This document shows positions 1,613-17,694 of a stretch of DNA of 64,000 nt, in pieces. Each line of letters starts with the position of its first letter. Position 1 is the stretch's first letter. The stretch is from positions 64,001 to 128,000 of the IMG/VR virus record IMGVR_UViG_3300005683_000016; one strand, written 5' to 3'. Source of the DNA: a virus. Below the pieces are notes generated by a model that was not told the origin of the DNA, ran no database searches, and saw nothing but the letters and a program-made list of their open reading frames with translations. A program made the translations under genes and the position numbers.

Positions 1613-2351
1613 TCTTCTTTTTAAAGTGATTAAGTAAAGTGTGAACTTCTTTTTTTAGATAGTCTATAGGGTAGTCTTGGGTATTTATTACTTTTCCATT
1701 CTCCATAATAAGATGTTCTATTACCATTTCTCCAGGTTTCATTTCAGGGTTAGATCTAAGTAGCAAATAAAGATAAAGTGAAAGTTGTAAAGAATAATGA
1801 TTAAAGTTACAATCTTCAAGGTGGCTAAGAGGTGGAGACATTTTTTTATATGTCCCGTCCCAAGACTTAAATCCTCGCATAACTATTTTTTCAGAAGTCT
1901 TGTAATCATATATATTAATAGTATTGTTTATTACCTCTATTCTATCGGCTTGCCCTGCTACTTTATAGTAAAGATCAAAGATTAATTTCTCTATATAAAT
2001 AGTATTGTTGTCAAGTTTTAATGATGTCGCACATTTATTATTACAATCATTAGCACTGTCCCATTTGATTAAAAGTTCACAATTATCTTTTGTAATTTTA
2101 CCAAGGGATTTATAGAAATTCTCTTTTTCAAGATGAACAGCAGTGCCTTGAATCTGACTGTTAAGTTTTTTATCAGCCCATTCTTTCAGTAATTCTTCCT
2201 TACTAATACCAATTTTTTTGGCCTTTTTTTCTGCTTCTAAGTCCCAATTTACAATTGGTTTTACTGTGTTTATTAATGAAGTACATGAAGTAAGTATTGT
2301 GTTTGTAGTTGTTTCTCTGTATGTATGGGTATTTTCAATAAATTCAACCAT
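1605..2351 (-). CDS. PD-(D/E)XK exonuclease (RecB/Cas4-like)
   Basis: GTAVH, E, AGQAD, IYDYKT, YSLQLSLY motifs. Confidence 0.85.
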   Translation of the reverse strand: MVEFIENTHTYRETTTNTILTSCTSLINTVKPIVNWDLEAEKKAKKIGISKEELLKEWADKKLNSQIQGTAVHLEKENFYKSLGKITKDNCELLIKWDSANDCNNKCATSLKLDNNTIYIEKLIFDLYYKVAGQADRIEVINNTINIYDYKTSEKIVMRGFKSWDGTYKKMSPPLSHLEDCNFNHYSLQLSLYLYLLLRSNPEMKPGEMVIEHLIMENGKVINTQDYPIDYLKKEVHTLLNHFKKKNG

Positions 2352-2353
2352 TT

Positions 2354-3109
2354 TTAAATATATTTAAAATAATATTTATTTACACGATAACCAAGGTTAA
2401 TTGATTTTTCAATTCCTCTTCTTAATATATTTAAATCTTCTACTGCATATTTTATAGAAAAATAACACATAATAGGAGTTTTATTTAAATCCATACATAA
2501 AATCCTTTTTCCATATAAAAAGGCAGTATTCCAGCGAAAAGGATTTATTTTATCTCCCTTATATTCTTTATACCATCTAAACCCGGCAGATGTTTTTGTT
2601 CTAAGTGAAATACGTTTGTTTAGTATTTTAACTGCGTCTGAATGACTTTCCCACTTTTTTATGAAATCACCTGCTAAACTATATTGATATATAGGAATTT
2701 TTGTGTGAGATTTGTCTCTAAACTTTGTATTTTTTAATTTTTTGTATTTTTCAATATCTATTTTTACTCCCTTCAAACTGTCTCCACCATTTGTTAAATT
2801 TGCAAGAATTCCTGTTTTATTATCTATTCTACCATAAAGTTTAATAAATTCGATTTCCTTTTGTAAAATAAACTCATAATCATTGGACTCTAATATTATT
2901 TCTACTCTGTAGTCATTGTTATTTTTTTTAACAATCTTTTTCCAAAGATCTGATTTATTGTATAAAGAGTGTGCTCTCGTATATTCTGATTTAAAATACG
3001 CATGTTTTATCTTTTTGAAAGATTTTGTACCTACTCCAATATAAAAGGGAGTTCCTTTATCTAATCTAATATGCCGATAAAGGTAATATTTGCCAATGTC
3101 TGTTATCAT
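2354..3109 (-). CDS. Free-standing GIY-YIG homing endonuclease with NUMOD1-like repeats
   Basis: YYLYRH...FYIGVG, E..FI, LANLTNGG; IYQYSLAGDFIKKWES. Confidence 0.8.
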   Translation of the reverse strand: MITDIGKYYLYRHIRLDKGTPFYIGVGTKSFKKIKHAYFKSEYTRAHSLYNKSDLWKKIVKKNNNDYRVEIILESNDYEFILQKEIEFIKLYGRIDNKTGILANLTNGGDSLKGVKIDIEKYKKLKNTKFRDKSHTKIPIYQYSLAGDFIKKWESHSDAVKILNKRISLRTKTSAGFRWYKEYKGDKINPFRWNTAFLYGKRILCMDLNKTPIMCYFSIKYAVEDLNILRRGIEKSINLGYRVNKYYFKYI

Positions 3110-3655: not shown

Positions 3656-3932
3656 TTACTTTGAGTTTTTCTGTTTGACCGTTGTCAAATTCAAGAGTTA
3701 AAGAAGCACCAAAATATCCAGTCTGACCTGTTTTATCTACTGTCATAGAAACTTCAAAAGGAACTCCGGGATAAACTTCAGTGGGAGTTACTGAAGAAGT
3801 ACAAGTACAACTTTTTAGCACTTTCGTAATTCTGACGTTTGAGTGTCCATTATTAACTCCTTTGAAAATGTGAGTATAAGGAGTTTTATTAGAGATAGAA
3901 ATTCTTACGGTAGGTTGTTCAAACACTATCAT
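3636..3932 (-). CDS. DUF1573-like Ig-fold protein
   Basis: F..VNNG...VRITKVLKSCTCTS....V.PG pattern typical of Bacteroidota DUF1573. Confidence 0.6.
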   Translation of the reverse strand: MIVFEQPTVRISISNKTPYTHIFKGVNNGHSNVRITKVLKSCTCTSSVTPTEVYPGVPFEVSMTVDKTGQTGYFGASLTLEFDNGQTEKLKVNGELKP

Positions 3933-3938
3933 ATTTAA

Positions 3939-4163
3939 TTAAAGTTCAATTGATTTAATTATACGTTCAAGGCTTTCTTTTGAATCTGGTTTACCATGAT
4001 ATAAAACGTTAGCAGAATCATCATAGATTAATAAAATGTTTTCTATACAATCTAAAGAAAGAGTTAAGATTTTTGTAGGTGTTTCTTTCTGGTAGTCTAG
4101 ATATTTACCTGACGCGTTGATTTGTTGGAGTCCTAAAGATTCTAAATCATCTTGTGTTATCAT
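3939..4163 (-). CDS. Hypothetical protein
   Basis: ORF in operon. Confidence 0.6.
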   Translation of the reverse strand: MITQDDLESLGLQQINASGKYLDYQKETPTKILTLSLDCIENILLIYDDSANVLYHGKPDSKESLERIIKSIEL

Positions 4164-4536
4164 GTTGTTTAAATTTTAATATGTCTTTTTCTGTTAGAAA
4201 CTGATATTCATTTAAAGATCCTGGAACAGGTACAAAAAATAAAGCCTCGTAAGAACCATTGTCATATAGAGAAAAAGATGCGTTTACATACTCTATAACC
4301 AATTCATCGTTGTATTTATACGCAATCGTTCCTTTTGTATAAATTTTTGTAAGAAGTACAGGCTCATTTACTATCGAATCCCCAGGATTAAATCCTATTA
4401 TTGTAAGTAGTCCTGATGTGTCATGCATCAAAGTTACATCAGGGCCTGATATTATTTGATTCCAATTTGGAGTTTGCGCTTTACTGATAATAGTACTCAG
4501 TAAACTAAGCAGGAAAAAGAATGTCTTTACGTTCAT
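4147..4536 (-). CDS. Secreted hypothetical protein
   Basis: Signal peptide ending SKA-Q. Confidence 0.6.
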   Translation of the reverse strand: MNVKTFFFLLSLLSTIISKAQTPNWNQIISGPDVTLMHDTSGLLTIIGFNPGDSIVNEPVLLTKIYTKGTIAYKYNDELVIEYVNASFSLYDNGSYEALFFVPVPGSLNEYQFLTEKDILKFKQHDNTR

Positions 4537-4559
4537 ATAATTTTTGATTAATTATGTTT

Positions 4560-5705
4560 TTAGTAATATTGTTTTAGTTGTTCGCCTTGATAAGCGTAAG
4601 TAAAAATATAATCATCTGCTTTTTTAGTTTTTCCTATTACATTACTCCTTACCTTAGACCCTTTAACACCAAACTCTCTTGCAGCACTTTGAGTTGAGAC
4701 ACACGATTTGATATAAAGTTTTGTTACAGCATCATACACAAACGTAGTCTTAGCGGTTTTTGGTAAATTAGAGTTATAAAAACCCACAGTTCCTTCTCCG
4801 CCTTTTGTGAGGTTACTTAATGTACCTAACTTGTTACTCTTTTGTCCATATAAGGCAATGAATTCAATTTCTTTCTTTTTTATAAACGCATAATTATCAG
4901 ATTCCATGATAATTTCTACTTGATATACACCGTTGTTTTTATTGACTATATCATTCCATATTTTGTTTCTCTTTCCTTTTGTAAAGGCTCTTTTATAGTC
5001 ATTTGAGTAACATTCAAGGCTATATGTATAATTAATTTTTTTACCAATTCCTATATAAAATACTTCATTTTTGTCAGGGCGAATATGTCGATATAAATAA
5101 TATTCTCCATTTTCCATTTCATAATTACCTTCAACTTTATGTATTTCCAAGTTAGACAATTTTGGAACATATCTATTCAGAGTCTTTCTTTGTATATTTA
5201 TGTTTTCATCTTGTCCTTCACGGATATAGAAACCAAAACAAGTACCGTTTGTTTTTAAACACTGAGTAACTGAAGAACAGGTACAATTTAAATAAATTCT
5301 ACACTGTTTGACTGACGTAAATGTTTTTTCTTTAATTCCATTTTTATTATAAATACTAATAATTTTTCGTTTTTCTTTCCTTTCATAAGGAAGTATAGAT
5401 ACTCCTTCAAATTTATCTTTCCAAATAAAACCTCCTATACTTTTTTTATTTTTTAAACCGCCTACTTTTATATTAAGTATTTTCTTAACGTCTGACCTTT
5501 TTTCCCAATACTTAATAAACGTTCCGTCTAAACCATACTGATAAACATCTTTGCTCCATACATCTATACAAGTCCATCTTGGATTTTTTGTTTTTAGTCT
5601 TTCTGAGGCTTTTGGATTAGACCTGCCTTTAGAAACACGTCCGTCTTTATTTGGATTATTCAACTTCATCCTTTCTGAAAGTTTCTTTCTCTGTTCGTTT
5701 GTCAT
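4560..5705 (-). CDS. GIY-YIG homing endonuclease with N-terminal NUMOD repeats
   Basis: N-terminal RKKLSERMKLNNP and VYQYGLDGTFIKYW; internal YYLYRHIR...FYIGIG, LSNLTKGGEG. Confidence 0.8.
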   Translation of the reverse strand: MTNEQRKKLSERMKLNNPNKDGRVSKGRSNPKASERLKTKNPRWTCIDVWSKDVYQYGLDGTFIKYWEKRSDVKKILNIKVGGLKNKKSIGGFIWKDKFEGVSILPYERKEKRKIISIYNKNGIKEKTFTSVKQCRIYLNCTCSSVTQCLKTNGTCFGFYIREGQDENINIQRKTLNRYVPKLSNLEIHKVEGNYEMENGEYYLYRHIRPDKNEVFYIGIGKKINYTYSLECYSNDYKRAFTKGKRNKIWNDIVNKNNGVYQVEIIMESDNYAFIKKKEIEFIALYGQKSNKLGTLSNLTKGGEGTVGFYNSNLPKTAKTTFVYDAVTKLYIKSCVSTQSAAREFGVKGSKVRSNVIGKTKKADDYIFTYAYQGEQLKQYY

Positions 5706-10535: not shown

Positions 10536-10560
10536 ATTTACCTATATTATATATAGGTGT

Positions 10561-10613
10561 AACTGTCCAGAGATATGTATCTCTGCTGATGAGTCCTAAA
10601 GGACGAAACAGTT
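10561..10613 (+). ncRNA. Hammerhead ribozyme, type III
   Basis: Stem III AACTG/CAGTT, GUC cleavage triplet (C10567), stem I CAGAGATA/TATCTCTG, CTGATGA, stem II GTCC-TAAA-GGAC, GAAA. Confidence 0.92.
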
Positions 10614-10741
10614 TTATTTACTATTGGACATCATTAAGGTGCTCCGATAGTATTTAGACCAGAAGGATGGTTTATTAATAATCATTTAATGGTCTTAGTT
10701 ACTTAATTAAGTAAATAGTACAATTAATATTGGTATCAAGC

Positions 10742-12173: not shown

Positions 12174-12587
12174 ATGCTTTACCTATTCAACACTACAATC
12201 ATGCCTAATGAAGGCGTGTTTGTAAATCGCAAAGTATCCAAAGAACAAGCCTGGGAGATTATTGCAAACGCACCAGCGTTTACATCTGCGTTGGGCCATC
12301 AAGGCTCAGCAGATGTATTTAATGCTGTGTTTCCAACATTTGAAGTATCTGTAAATCGCATCCAAGCACAAATGCAACCCAAAGATGAGGCAGTATGTCT
12401 CAAAGTGTTGGGTCGTCTTCCAGAAGGACAAATCCTTTCTCTTGAACAATTGCAAGAGATTGGTTTCGAATTTTTCCATGTCCAAATGGTCATGGGAATT
12501 ACAGAAAACCCAATCGCATTTACTTGCGAGATGGGAGGGTCAAAAAACGAAAAAACATTCACCGCGTTTGGTGAGTGTAAATTTTAA
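12174..12587 (+). CDS. acrIII-1: DUF1874/YddF family viral ring nuclease (anti-type III CRISPR)
   Basis: MLYLFN, SALGHQGSA (GH motif), VNRIQ, RLPEGQILSLEQL. Confidence 0.85.
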   Translation: MLYLFNTTIMPNEGVFVNRKVSKEQAWEIIANAPAFTSALGHQGSADVFNAVFPTFEVSVNRIQAQMQPKDEAVCLKVLGRLPEGQILSLEQLQEIGFEFFHVQMVMGITENPIAFTCEMGGSKNEKTFTAFGECKF

Positions 12588-12911: not shown

Positions 12912-12919
12912 TATCTTTG
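12912..12919 (+). promoter_or_regulatory. Bacteroidota -7 element TATCTTTG
   Basis: Consensus match about 48 nt upstream of ATG 12967. Confidence 0.5.
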
Positions 12920-12966: not shown

Positions 12967-13599
12967 ATGAAAAATAAAAAAATCCTGTCTATTGATGCCG
13001 AAACCGATGGACTTTGGGGCAATCCGTTTGTAGTTGCCGCTATCGTATATGAGTGGCAACCAGAAAAATTCATCCCAGGTATGGATCGTGGTGTAGATGG
13101 GTACAGACCTGAACACATCCTTCAAGGATATTGGAAAGAAACCAACAAAATTCTGTTAAAACTACCTGATACAGTGGTTTCTAACCAATGGGTAATCGAG
13201 AACGTATTACCTACATTGAGCAATATCCGCCAACACTCTGGCGGTGCTGGTAGTGAATATGTGAACCATACTCACGAATCTTATGAAGACATGCTGCGTG
13301 ATTTTGCAGCATTTTATCTTGCTCACAAACAAAATGCAGATTGCATCTGCCACATGGGCTACATTGTAGAGGCCCATTTGTTTCGGGAAATGCACCACCT
13401 TGGTCACATAGGAGAATGGGATGCACCATACCCGTTGCTTGATGTGTCAGGCAATCTCCAGCAAGTTGGAGAAGATCCTACAAGTGTAGATAATTATGCT
13501 AAAAAACATCGGTTACCAATCACGGATTATGGTTCAACCCATAATCCCCTGTACGACTGCGAAGTTGCCGCCAAAGTGTATATGCACTTAACACGGTAA
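12967..13599 (+). CDS. DEDDh 3'-5' exonuclease (DnaQ-like)
   Basis: ILSIDAETDG (Exo I), HNPLYD (Exo III). Confidence 0.8.
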   Translation: MKNKKILSIDAETDGLWGNPFVVAAIVYEWQPEKFIPGMDRGVDGYRPEHILQGYWKETNKILLKLPDTVVSNQWVIENVLPTLSNIRQHSGGAGSEYVNHTHESYEDMLRDFAAFYLAHKQNADCICHMGYIVEAHLFREMHHLGHIGEWDAPYPLLDVSGNLQQVGEDPTSVDNYAKKHRLPITDYGSTHNPLYDCEVAAKVYMHLTR

Positions 13600-13604
13600 A
13601 CAAT

Positions 13605-14150
13605 CAAAATCAAAAGTGAAGTGAAATATATCCATAATGTAATAGACGGTAAGCAGTCCGTTGAGCATATTTGGTTAATCGTGAATGTACTATGTACAAT
13701 GCGAGTATTAAGACCTTTAACGGGTTGCAAGGAGATAATATAATTATCAAATTGTAGGACGGCTTTTGATTTTTTTTAATAAGATTACGGTGAGAATCCG
13801 TCTCTCAGCAAAGTAGTAATACTTGAACTAATAGAGAGTGTAATAAGATGTTCAGTAGCGAAGAAATTAATTTTTCTTAGCGAGAATGGAGAAATCCTCT
13901 GAAGTTATTACAGATAACCATGTGGGGCTTATGTCTTGAAATTCTTAAAAAGTGGCGCACTTTTTATTAATAAGTTATAATTCTGTATTAGTACAGCGTA
14001 ACTTAGATTATCAAGCATTAGTGCAGACTTAAAAATCATGGAGTGGTACGACCTCAACTCGTATAATCTTTGTTGCAGATATTGATGAAAACATGAAAAG
14101 ATGTTCTGAGAGTCTTTTAAAAAGGTATCAAAAAGCAAAAGAAATTTTAT
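13605..14150 (+). ncRNA. Large structured RNA (unit 1; possibly ROOL-like)
   Basis: No credible ORF; stems 13609-17/13762-70, 13839-46/13905-12, T-loop-like ACGG-TGAGAAT-CCGT, GGA-GAAA-TCC. Confidence 0.55.
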
Positions 14151-14160
14151 TAAAAATATA

Positions 14161-14595
14161 AAACATTCACTCCGTAAAGTCTCAGTCTTTAACAGGACTC
14201 ATCACAATTCCTTTAACGTAACATAAGTTGGTGGAACAACAGGCTTAGGTCTGTCTCACAAGTATGGTGGAAGTTTGGTTGGTAAAGACAGGAGATAATG
14301 TAATCCGAAAGGATTGGCAGCAGATGGACATTGTGTTCTTAGAACATAAATAGGTCAATACAAGATGAACAGATTAAATGCTGTTATGCTTGGACGTTTC
14401 CTTATCTGCCTTTTCAAGGTAACACTTTCAAACCAGTAATGGTGAGATAATGAAGAGTATACATGTGGCAAAAGTGTTCCAGTAAGAGCATACCCACCTG
14501 ACAGGGTAATTCCAGTTTCCAAATTGTATAAGGAAACAAACGGGTTAGGATATAATTGTGCAGACGCCCTAATAGTTAGGCTAAGGGTGTAACAA
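14161..14595 (+). ncRNA. Unassigned structured RNA, copy A (~435 nt)
   Basis: Shares five core blocks and compensatory pairs with 15238-15678. Confidence 0.75.
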
Positions 14596-15231
14596 CTCCC
14601 AATCATTGGGTTAAATGGTAGTTATCAGTTACTTTAACTGATTTAGTTTACCTGTTTGTATAAATTTAACAGGAGTTCTTGTACATACAAGTGTTGTTAC
14701 TTTTTCCAGCAGTCAGAAAAAAGCGTGTAATCTACGAGATAAGATTAACCTACTGTACTTAGGTTTGAGGGTAGTTCCATGTACAACATTGAACCGAAAG
14801 GTATCATGTAAGCCCTTAAGTGGGATAAATTGAGTTAAATTGTGTTAGGTTGAAAATATACCTGTAAGAAATAATACATTTTTCGCATTTGTGAGATTTG
14901 TTAAGGTTCTTCCACAATAATATCCTACACTCAACGATGGCAGCCGGGTTGGAACCCACAGTAGATAAATAACTATACTCTTTTAGGGAGTGAAGTCAGT
15001 GTAGTTTTACTGAAAAAGTTAGTATTTATTAGACTGTTTAATAGGCGTTTTGTATATTGTAAAGTTGAATTTGTATCATAGAGAATCTGTGGGTGGATTT
15101 GCCTAATGTTAGGTGAGAGTAAGTTCGATCCTTACCGTTGATATAAATTTAACAGATATACAATCCTATACTATATAAGTCTGATCAACTTATGTAGTAA
15201 TTGTGCGACCCACATTATTGTGGGTGACATT
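14596..15231 (+). ncRNA. Unassigned large structured RNA (unit C) with embedded tRNA-like domain
   Basis: Many stems; T arm GTAAG-TTCGATC-CTTAC stacked on TCAACG/CGTTGA; shared 3' motif. Confidence 0.55.
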
Positions 15232-15237
15232 TTTTAA

Positions 15238-15678
15238 AAACATCCACTCTGTAAAGTCTTGTAATTCGCGGAAGGTTTAACCAAATATTCTCTCTTTGGG
15301 GATAAAAAAGGTGAGAATCCTTTTTCTGTGTATAGACAGGAGATGATGTAAACCAATAATATGGTTTGGCAGCAGATGGACATTGTTATTTCTTAAATGA
15401 ACTAATAAATAGGTTACTGTTCAACTTATATAAGTTGAAAGAGATTTCCTTATCTGCCTCTTCACGTTAATAGCGTTCAAGATACACTATGACCGTTGTG
15501 AAATTCAACAGGAACTACTGATTCTATACCAATCAGAGTAGTGTACATCCAGTAATGGTGAGATAATGAAGAGTATACTAAGGGTAGTCCGTAATTCAGA
15601 AATGAATTAGAGTGGGAAAATAGACTTATAAAAATCCTACCTTAGTAATTGTGCGGCATCCCAAGTGGATGCAACATT
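15238..15678 (+). ncRNA. Unassigned structured RNA, copy B (~440 nt)
   Basis: Paralogue of copy A. Confidence 0.75.
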
Positions 15679-15689
15679 TATTAACAAAA

Positions 15690-15723
15690 TTTTAACTTTT
15701 AACTTTTAACTTTTAACTTTTAA
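15690..15723. repeat. Tandem repeat (TTTTAAC) x ~4.9
   Basis: Seen directly. Confidence 0.95.
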
Positions 15724-15736
15724 AATTGTAACGGAC

Positions 15737-16114
15737 ATGCAATTTACATTAGATCACAAAGTAGGAACAAACTATGTAACTGTCACTTTAAGTGGAAAAG
15801 TATCTCCACTTATATGGTGTGAGTTTTTCACAAAACTCCAATATCTTGGAGGAAAACAAGCAGTAGAAGGACAGTCGGATATTTGGCTGTTACCTACTTT
15901 TGTTACATCACAAGTCATTGAAGAAATCATCCATAACACATGTTTCGTGTGTGGTGGATTGATGAAAGATTCTACTGCATTTTTGAATGACTGTGTATCA
16001 TTCGATGATTTTGGTAATGATGCTGGACAACGAGGTACAACACAATCACGTGTTGGAGAAGCAAAACAAGTCAAAGTTCGCAAGTGCTCTTCTTGCGGAC
16101 ACTCACACACTTAA
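15737..16114 (+). CDS. Zinc-ribbon protein
   Basis: CFVCGG...CSSCGH. Confidence 0.65.
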   Translation: MQFTLDHKVGTNYVTVTLSGKVSPLIWCEFFTKLQYLGGKQAVEGQSDIWLLPTFVTSQVIEEIIHNTCFVCGGLMKDSTAFLNDCVSFDDFGNDAGQRGTTQSRVGEAKQVKVRKCSSCGHSHT

Positions 16115-16120
16115 AAACAA

Positions 16121-16283
16121 AACAGGTGTAAGGGGGTGGAACCTTACTTTAAATGCTACCAACATTGGTTGGCCTCCAGGCATGGATGGGTCTAAAGTTC
16201 TTAAAGAACAGGGGTGAATAATGCTTAGAAGTCTGTTAAAAGACAACTTATAGTAGAATATCTCCCATGAAGGCATTACTGTT
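16121..16283 (+). ncRNA. Candidate multi-stem structured RNA
   Basis: Nested stems AACAG/CTGTT, GTAAGG/CCTTAC, AATGC/GCATT, CATGG/CCATG, GTTCT/AGAAC; GC above background. Confidence 0.4.
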
Positions 16284-16300
16284 TTTAAAACAAGCAAACT

Positions 16301-16468
16301 ATGAACAAGATATTGGGAGCATTTAATATAACACGAGAGTATGATGGACGTGAAGTAGACTATATTGGATTTTTATCTTGTACAGACGGAGAATGGGTCG
16401 GATCAGGAGAATCTACATGTATACGATATGTAGAATGGTTGATCCACACCAATCAGATTCCAAATTAA
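16301..16468 (+). CDS. Small hypothetical protein (55 aa)
   Basis: Manual translation MNKILGAFNITREYDG...; below ORF-track cutoff. Confidence 0.55.
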   Translation: MNKILGAFNITREYDGREVDYIGFLSCTDGEWVGSGESTCIRYVEWLIHTNQIPN

Positions 16469-16482
16469 AAAAACAATAAAAT

Positions 16483-16866
16483 ATGAATCAACCAATCATT
16501 TTCAACAAAAATAACCCAACAGAAAAATACATTATTACCGAAAAATGGGAGTTTAACCCCAACGGTATAACCGTCTTTGATATGGAAGTTGGAGGAATCA
16601 CAGATAACGGATTTTACCATTTTTCAGAAATCGAAAATTGGAAAAATTTAGTTAAGCAGGATTTAAAACCTAAAGTCGTAGAAGCAATTCAATCACAAAA
16701 CCTTGAAAAGGTATTATCGTTGCTTCATTTTATGTCAGATAACGGTGTATTATATCAAGGAAGATATAACGCTCTAAAGAAACAGTATACTATGGGCATG
16801 ATTGAATCCTCAGAATATACAAGAGGAATTGCTCAAATAGGTTACGACATTTTGAAAAAATTTTAA
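16483..16866 (+). CDS. Protein with C-terminal EAD11-like (effector-associated) domain
   Basis: VVEAIQSQNLEKVLSLL...LYQGRYNALKKQYTMGMIESSEY...AQIGYDIL. Confidence 0.6.
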   Translation: MNQPIIFNKNNPTEKYIITEKWEFNPNGITVFDMEVGGITDNGFYHFSEIENWKNLVKQDLKPKVVEAIQSQNLEKVLSLLHFMSDNGVLYQGRYNALKKQYTMGMIESSEYTRGIAQIGYDILKKF

Positions 16867-17386: not shown

Positions 17387-17472
17387 GCTCCTGTGGCGAA
17401 ATTGGCAGCACGCTGCGGTCTTAAACACCGTTGGAGAAATCCGTAAGGGTTCAAGTCCCTTCAGGAGCACCA
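17387..17472 (+). tRNA. tRNA-Leu (TAA)
   Basis: GCTCCTG/CAGGAGC acceptor, anticodon loop CTTAAAC, long variable arm, TTCAAGT T loop, encoded CCA. Confidence 0.9.
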
Positions 17473-17606: not shown

Positions 17607-17694
17607 GGCCCCGTAACACATCATCGTTCTAAGGTGACGCTTAAAAGAGTGTAATTGGAAACAGCGTTTGGGAGTTCGAGTCTCTCCGGGGTCA
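17607..17694 (+). tRNA. Atypical tRNA-like gene with no D arm (apparent anticodon TCT, Arg)
   Basis: GGCCCCG/CGGGGTC acceptor, GGGAG-TTCGAGT-CTCTC T arm, TCATC/GGTGA stem with 7-nt loop GTTCTAA; only 7 nt where the D arm belongs. Confidence 0.6.

Follow-up and report, generated by a model that had tools for sequence, protein, structure and literature searches.

The window analyzed here comprises 64,000 nucleotides and corresponds to bases 64001–128000 of a 142-kb IMG/VR virus record that is complete by CheckV. The presence of rIIA, rIIB, a DNA polymerase and several GIY-YIG homing endonuclease genes in this genome marks it as a T4-like phage. A stretch of 2.1 kb between the end of one open reading frame (ORF) at 13599 and the start of the next at 15737 contains no credible ORF, either under table 11 or with TAG read as Q. 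It is occupied by a predicted Hatchet ribozyme and by large RNAs, which we call A, M and B. Coding under table 4 was considered and rejected, as it yields a single minus-strand frame only, without a counterpart in B.

The stretch is followed by a conserved 125-aa zinc-ribbon-like ORF (15737–16114) with two CxxC pairs and without a family match, which itself or through its homologues always lies downstream of the RNA cluster, and by a gene for an EAD11 domain protein (16483–16866, E 4.4e-08). The nearest canonical tRNA gene, a tRNA-Leu(UAA) on the plus strand at 17387–17472, is called by both ARAGORN (anticodon taa) and Rfam (match 17387–17469). On the upstream side lie a gene for a STIV B116-like protein (12174–12587, E 1.7e-20) and a type III hammerhead ribozyme on the plus strand (10560–10614), which scores 49.7 bits in Rfam, where the gathering score is 48.5. 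The hammerhead is flanked by two endonuclease genes on the minus strand and precedes the Hatchet ribozyme by 3.3 kb and A by 3.5 kb.

RNAs A, M and B and their relatives

RNA A spans 14161–14593 (433 nt) and RNA B 15238–15686 (449 nt), both on the plus strand and delimited by anchor segmentation and a pair table. The original prediction described five blocks common to the two in the same order; all five are present in their places, where shuffled sequences would be expected to give none. The perfect 30-mer recurs without a mismatch at 14433 and 15549 (2 matches, where shuffles give an expectation of 0.00) and TTGGCAGCAGATGGACATTGT stands at 14314 and 15366, again with none expected from shuffles, while the other blocks of A and B correspond to the repeat families D3, D5, D6 and D8. 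A sixth common block, TAATTGTGC, occurs at 14553 in A, at 15646 in B and at 15198 at the end of M (3 found against 0.52 expected), and this block followed by a hairpin forms the ending of all three RNAs. The phage genome contains exactly two copies of the A/B type, namely A and B themselves.

The two RNAs can be described part by part. In A, the 5' half consists of b1 (14161–14182), a first domain D1 of the alpha type (14183–14285), b2 (14286–14302), the hairpin H2 (14303–14315) and GGCAGC (14316–14321). The middle is formed by a central domain (14322–14409), the 5' strand of P5 (14410–14416), the segment J (14417–14432) and the invariant block b5 (14433–14460), and the 3' part by the 3' domain (14461–14553), AATTGTGC (14554–14561) and a terminal hairpin (14562–14590). 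B follows the same plan with b1 (15238–15259), a D1 of the beta type (15260–15333), b2 (15334–15350), H2 (15351–15367), GGCAGC (15368–15373), the central domain (15374–15457), the 5' strand of P5 (15458–15464), a J segment that includes a 66-nt three-way insert (15465–15548), b5 (15549–15576), the 3' domain (15577–15646), AATTGTGC (15647–15654) and the terminal hairpin (15656–15672), after which comes ACATTT.

Between the two, on the plus strand at ~14640–15232 with an uncertain 5' end, lies RNA M, which the first reading of the sequence had missed. Its layout runs from GGCAGC through a domain, a long-range helix, a junction and a hairpin to AUUGUGC (ATTGTGC in the DNA), a terminal hairpin and ACAUUU, with a T-arm-like hairpin at ~15110–15126. 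Within its 3' module 16 of the 25 predicted pairs show compensatory changes. With this module in common, M is best read from its sequence as a third, more distant paralogue of A and B, so that the order of the cluster becomes Hatchet, A, M, B.

Relatives were sought by pattern scans of IMG/VR, JGI/ENA metagenomes and GTDB genomes, followed by BLAST and a reading of each locus. At least four further A/B-type RNAs were recovered, in the loci L004, L021, L066 and L110, with three uncultured phage records and two metagenome contigs as sources; L009/L170 carries the L021-type RNA in a second virus record, and the metagenome contig L118 is identical to L021 where compared. Five further M-type homologues occur in L004, L021, L066, L110 and L150, and an M-type RNA lies upstream in every locus with an A/B-type RNA. 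The true relatives thus comprise at least the viral loci L004, L009/L170, L021 and L150 and the metagenomic loci L066, L110 and L118. Since a member count from metagenomes is a lower bound, the family is probably larger than the members listed. The six A/B-type members range in length from 362 to 611 nt. The 2.1-kb block had no blastn match among 50,697 phage records, and the exact 30-mer had none in IMG/VR, a scan from which the window's own record was possibly excluded. Other hits of shorter patterns were discarded as chance; these include 20-mer matches in a Chloroflexi MAG and in Desulfosarcina, as well as further places in the coding sequence of the phage genome that match the 3' module pattern or the GTGAGAATC loop.

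What surrounds the RNAs is partly constant. tRNA genes or tRNA-like elements are found downstream of the A/B-type RNA, and tRNA genes adjoin the cluster in every locus with enough flank (the window, L004, L021 and L110), whereas upstream of the unchanged RNA core the genes vary from locus to locus. Some of these elements are unusual. At 17607–17694 on the plus strand of the window there is an odd tRNA-like gene with a UCU anticodon-like loop, and similar genes with a CAU loop are found in L004 (~5440–5550, minus strand) and, downstream of the A/B-type RNA, in L066 and L110. They combine a good acceptor stem and T arm with a long extra arm but lack a normal D arm, and none of them, in the window, L004, L066 or L110, is called by ARAGORN; in those with the CAU loop the acceptor and anticodon stems covary between loci. 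In L066 (minus strand), M abuts the next A/B-type RNA without a spacer, and the ACAUUU tail of M is at the same time the 5' strand of P1 of its neighbor. This sharing suggests that the two RNAs are made there as one transcript.

A covarying fold with exchangeable domains

To describe the fold, the six A/B-type RNAs were cut at six invariant anchors and candidate helices were tabulated. The core begins with P1, formed by b1 with b2, and continues with P2, which closes D1, H2, P4, which closes the central domain, and P5, which closes a junction containing a short hairpin, a UUCAA strand and a CCA-GYAA-UGG hairpin with a GNRA loop. On the 3' side of this junction follow P6, closing the 3' domain, then AAUUGUGC and the terminal hairpin. 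The perfect 30-mer thereby resolves into the CCA-GYAA-UGG hairpin, the strand UGAGAUAA and the 3' strand of P5. Strictly invariant are the single-stranded junction nucleotides GUAAA, UUGGCA, UGAGAUAA and AAUUGUGC.

P4, P5, P6, H2 and the terminal hairpin keep their pairing by compensatory changes across the six RNAs. For P4 (GCAGAU/AUCUGC, GCCC/GGGC, GCAGAUAUAA/UUAUAUUUGC and ACAAC/GUUGU in different members), 94% of cells are paired, against 78% in shuffles (only 1 of 500 as high) and 27–50% with a slid partner, and three of six pairs change on both sides. P6 and the terminal hairpin together reach 92.8%, compared with 75.8% in shuffles (0 of 500) and 34–44% with a slid partner; here, 9 of 16 pairs change on both sides. 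Pairing amounts to 0.79–0.92 within a sequence and to 0.56–0.64 between sequences. In P5, CUYUUCA pairs with UGAARAG and the variable position appears as C-G, U-A, U.G or C.A across members, while H2 differs in every member, with unrelated sequences of 13–99 nt; it was judged from the anchored table, and its stem lengths differ between members. P2 (GUCU with AGAC) is invariant, and P1 (ACAUY-CA-CUCY with GGAG-AU-RAUGU) shows one clean exchange of U-A for C-G. The latter helix is imperfect in three members whose 5' block overlaps or abuts a preceding gene, which is an ORF in L004 and L021 and RNA M in L066.

Most of the base pairs that had been proposed from the two copies are borne out by the pair table: the compensatory change of CATT/AATG to CATC/GATG, the change of CTCC to CTCT against GGAG, and that of CTTTTCA to CTCTTCA against TGAAGAG. 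The pairing of GAC with GTC or GTT is lost in L004, which has GCC there. The broader proposal, that an invariant core with variable helices at its periphery defines a family of structured RNAs, is upheld by compensatory changes in several helices once four further members are included. Taken singly, the sequence of A has an unremarkable folding energy (z −1.39), and for B (z −2.48) the deviation is modest. The covariation set consists of six sequences, five of them distinct in the 3' half, all from related phages, so part of the sequence invariance could stem from gene conversion or from an ancestor shared not long ago. Only a plus-strand reading makes sense of the G.U pairs, the GNRA loops (GAAA, GUAA, GCAA) and a UUCGAAU T loop, which places the predicted RNA on that strand; the Hatchet ribozyme, the tRNA and the flanking ORFs are likewise encoded on it.

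How variable are the segments between the blocks? That they differ between A and B, as had been noted at the outset, is correct, yet they are conserved in other phages: the D1 of A recurs with 85–86% identity in L004 and L021 and that of B with 92% in L110, while L066 has a third type of D1. The mosaic is most evident in L004, where an A-like D1 (86%) and central domain (93%) are combined with a J segment, 3' domain and terminal hairpin that are 100% identical to those of L110, a locus whose own D1 is B-like (92%). An A-like 5' half joined to an L110-identical 3' half shows that the core serves as a scaffold for alternative folded domains that have been recombined. These alignments identify the peripheral domains as modules that phages have exchanged by recombination, namely D1, H2, the central domain, the J insert, the 3' domain and the terminal hairpin.

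The most variable position is the J slot, located between UUCAA and the GNRA hairpin, which is empty in four members and holds a three-way stem in B. L021 has a 166-nt domain in this slot with a perfect 7-bp acceptor-like stem, a D-like arm and a T arm (GAAGG-UUCGAAU-CCUUC) stacked directly on the acceptor-like stem; this domain is not called a tRNA by ARAGORN or by the tRNA model.

Apart from these modules, M offers an observation of its own. In 15045–15205, AUAUACAA can pair alternatively with the upstream UUGUAUAU (8 bp) or with AUUGUG downstream (6 bp). Six homologues retain each of these strands unchanged, so that M may be able to alternate between two structures.

Transcription, RNA ends and the probable host

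The Hatchet ribozyme is predicted on the plus strand at 13894–14041, 120 nt upstream of A, a model-based assignment that covers Rfam RF02678 over the full length of the model and scores 67 bits (gathering score 51, E 1.6e-11). Rfam searches did not find it at the other loci, so it is not a fixed partner of these RNAs. No promoter of the Bacteroidota type directly precedes A or B, the nearest one being at 12912, and terminator-like hairpins are present at the 3' ends of M and B. The 5' block reaches into the end of the upstream ORF in L021 and L110, an arrangement that would also fit a 3'-UTR element. We infer that A, M and B would be part of a longer plus-strand transcript that runs towards the tRNA genes and is co-transcribed with the upstream genes. 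Self-cleavage is the established behavior of the Hatchet class, and at this position it could free the RNA array from the upstream mRNA at the 5' edge of the array. At the other side, the terminal hairpins, terminator-like in M and B, may set or protect the 3' ends.

The surroundings of the Hatchet ribozyme contain a small recurrent element. A hairpin with the loop GGUGAGAAUCC, the sequence of the conserved P1 loop in the Hatchet consensus, is found at 13785–13802 upstream of the ribozyme, at 15306–15326 in the D1 of B, in L110, and at ~1740–1755 (minus strand) in L150 upstream of M. The P1 of the window's own Hatchet ribozyme is without this loop.

Can the host of the phage be named? A GTDB scan with a 20-mer of the invariant block gave a match in a contig of an uncultured Saprospiraceae bacterium (MAG, CAYZVM010000009.1). 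The matching sequence is a spacer of 30 nt, part of an array (~3670–4800) whose repeats are 36 nt long; the adjoining gene, from 4928 on, is the cas13b of this type VI-B locus (NF038190, E 1.2e-171; 1132-aa frame). The protospacer in A (14432–14461, plus strand) is identical to the spacer at 29 of 30 positions and the equivalent site in B (15548–15577, plus strand) at 28 of 30. On the strength of this Cas13b spacer, which is directed against the invariant block, we consider Saprospiraceae (Bacteroidota) to be the likely host group of this phage. The position of the protospacer is no evidence of enrichment, because the spacer was found by searching with the invariant block. None of the other spacers of this array matches this phage or any cultured phage, and no second informative array emerged from 400 Saprospiraceae genomes or from 150 genomes of the class.

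The orientation of the spacer is less clear-cut. Set beside the published repeat of PspCas13b, the position of the central U-run in the repeat of this array favors a spacer that is antisense to the plus-strand RNA, as do the published rules for the bases that flank Cas13b targets (5' not C; 3' NAN or NNA), whereas the placement of degenerate repeats far from cas13b favors the opposite direction of the crRNA. Taken together, a Cas13b crRNA antisense to the RNA is weakly favored. If it is antisense, the host would attack the transcript itself.

Known RNA classes and possible roles

To our knowledge, there are only a few large RNA classes in bacteria and phages that have elaborate conserved folds and a function that is unknown, among them OLE, GOLLD, ROOL, raiA and a few others. 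A, B and M resemble GOLLD and ROOL in kind only and belong to a previously undescribed family. In line with the original prediction, Rfam 15 contains no family that matches A, B or M. These RNAs stayed without a hit both at gathering score and with E up to 10 when the window and L004, L021, L066, L110, L009 and L150 were searched (the permissive search covered 13000–16500 of the window, with E up to 10 and permissive filters). The covariance models of GOLLD (RF01998) and ROOL (RF03087) also do not match A, B or M, even with E up to 10, so the analogy to these classes is one of context and size alone.

Within these bounds, several likenesses can be drawn. GOLLD and ROOL are phage RNAs found near tRNA islands, and the linker of GOLLD sometimes holds a tRNA (bioRxiv 10.1101/2024.12.08.627333). 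Like GOLLD, the A/B family is a large structured non-coding phage RNA beside tRNA genes with conserved and variable parts. The J slot of L021 may be compared with the variable GOLLD linker, although its tRNA-like domain is not called a tRNA by ARAGORN or the tRNA model. The family differs from GOLLD in its smaller size (362–611 nt against >800), its helix layout and its tandem paralogues. ROOL is similar in length (~0.5–0.6 kb), in its origin from phages or prophages and in its proximity to tRNA islands; in contrast to ROOL, no pseudoknots were identified in the A/B family, and the hosts differ, with Saprospiraceae phages on our side. Assembly into RNA-only multimeric nanocages is a feature of GOLLD and ROOL. 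The stable RNAs C and D of T4 are non-coding, ~120–140 nt long and encoded together with the tRNA genes of a T4-type phage. Compared by description only, they share the tRNA-cluster setting but are far shorter than A and B. The neighborhood further recalls phage loci with Hatchet, hammerhead or twister ribozymes, as a Hatchet and a type III hammerhead lie upstream of A; A, B and M themselves are none of the small ribozymes, and the related loci have no recognizable ribozyme.

On balance, we would read the cluster as a new family of stable, trans-acting structural phage RNAs, GOLLD- and ROOL-like in kind and carried by T4-like phages with Saprospiraceae as likely hosts, with A and B as paralogues and M as a distant third, and regard this reading as having about an even chance of being right. 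The released RNAs would then be stable, with a compact tertiary fold, possibly as a multimer or RNP, and their action during infection would be tied to tRNAs or translation rather than that of a guide or cis-regulator.

Several other explanations compete with this one. The invariant junction could direct the RNA to tRNAs of the phage or the host: two T-loops flanking a hairpin would dock the tRNA elbow, and the RNA would bind, sequester or process its targets. Double T-loops flanking a hairpin are found in the specificity domain of RNase P and at the distal end of T-box stem I, and the minimal T-loop pattern asks for U at position 1, a purine at 4 and A at 5. Both UUCAA and UGAGA, which lie before and after the CCA-GYAA-UGG hairpin and which may be T-loops flanking this conserved hairpin within the invariant 30-mer, fit the pattern. 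The tRNA-like domain of L021 sits exactly at this junction, and tRNA genes and odd tRNA-like genes are constant neighbors. The pentamers are, however, short and invariant and thus give no covariation signal, and the RNase P and T-box models do not match A, B or M; we hold this explanation to be rather unlikely. A new large ribozyme or intron-like element that cleaves, splices or circularizes itself, a catalytic role of the sort the original prediction had considered, would account for the strictly invariant junction nucleotides and for ACAUU-type motifs that recur at unit boundaries, and it would suit a phage rich in GIY-YIG homing endonuclease genes that also has Hatchet and hammerhead ribozymes. 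It is nevertheless quite unlikely: group I (RF00028), group II and small-ribozyme models match none of A, B and M at E up to 10, GNRA hairpins occur only with stems of 3–9 bp and without a two-base bulge, and the units interrupt no gene or tRNA, their flanks being intergenic DNA or ORF ends that vary between loci. Closely connected to both is the doubtful proposal that the invariant core is a center acting on tRNAs or tRNA-like RNAs, be it a double-T-loop platform or a new large ribozyme. If true, A, M and B would constitute a phage RNA machine that handles tRNAs during infection, a functional class undescribed for phages.

A decoy against RNA-directed immunity of the host, soaking up a nuclease such as an anticodon nuclease or interfering with Cas13, is suggested by the tRNA-like modules in their tRNA-island context, by the nearby EAD11-domain gene and by the Cas13b spacer, which means that the locus has been seen by host immunity. 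We judge it improbable, given that the block itself was the query that led to the spacer, whose position is therefore uninformative, and that the cluster bears no likeness to the Cas13b repeat (best local score 9–10 against a null mean of 10–11). A repeat-mimic RNA anti-CRISPR was discarded on the same grounds, as the best local alignments of the cluster with the host CRISPR repeat do not score above the genome-wide null. Are the RNAs perhaps cis-acting, as stabilizers or terminators in the 3' UTRs of upstream ORFs or as a leader of the 125-aa ORF? The overlap of 5' blocks with upstream ORF ends in L021 and L110, the terminator-like 3' hairpins and the ORF that always follows the cluster would agree with this, but three tandem multi-helix paralogues of 0.4–0.6 kb far exceed known bacterial cis-regulators, and the upstream genes vary by locus around a constant RNA core, which makes a cis-acting role decidedly improbable. 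Least of all do we expect a guide-carrying RNA whose variable segments target nucleic acids, an idea raised in the original prediction on the grounds that the segments between the blocks differ between A and B. These segments are 85–92% identical in other phages and fold into covarying hairpins, and no effector nuclease gene is adjacent. Their longest matches to the 142-kb phage genome are at most 16 nt, which is chance level, and a comparison of the whole cluster with the Saprospiraceae genome returns the CRISPR spacer only.

If A, M and B indeed form such a family of trans-acting structural RNAs, they would join classes each of which became a target of structural and functional work. Useful features in this respect are the three tandem paralogues in one phage, the domain swapping around an invariant core, a slot able to carry a tRNA-like domain, a predicted self-cleaving ribozyme on the 5' side and a Cas13b spacer against the most conserved block. 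With these, constructs for probing and cryo-EM can be defined, the Saprospiraceae emerge as the probable host group, and a connection of large phage RNAs with tRNA biology becomes testable.

A last observation concerns the terminal hairpin of A, whose loop is CUAAUAGUUAGGCUAAG and whose stem covaries. It recurs at ~3057–3102 on the minus strand of a contig from an otherwise unrelated 105-kb phage (L154, IMGVR_UViG_3300010167_000860), directly after a GIY-YIG-like ORF and followed by ACUCCG. The A-type terminal hairpin may thus be a free-standing module.
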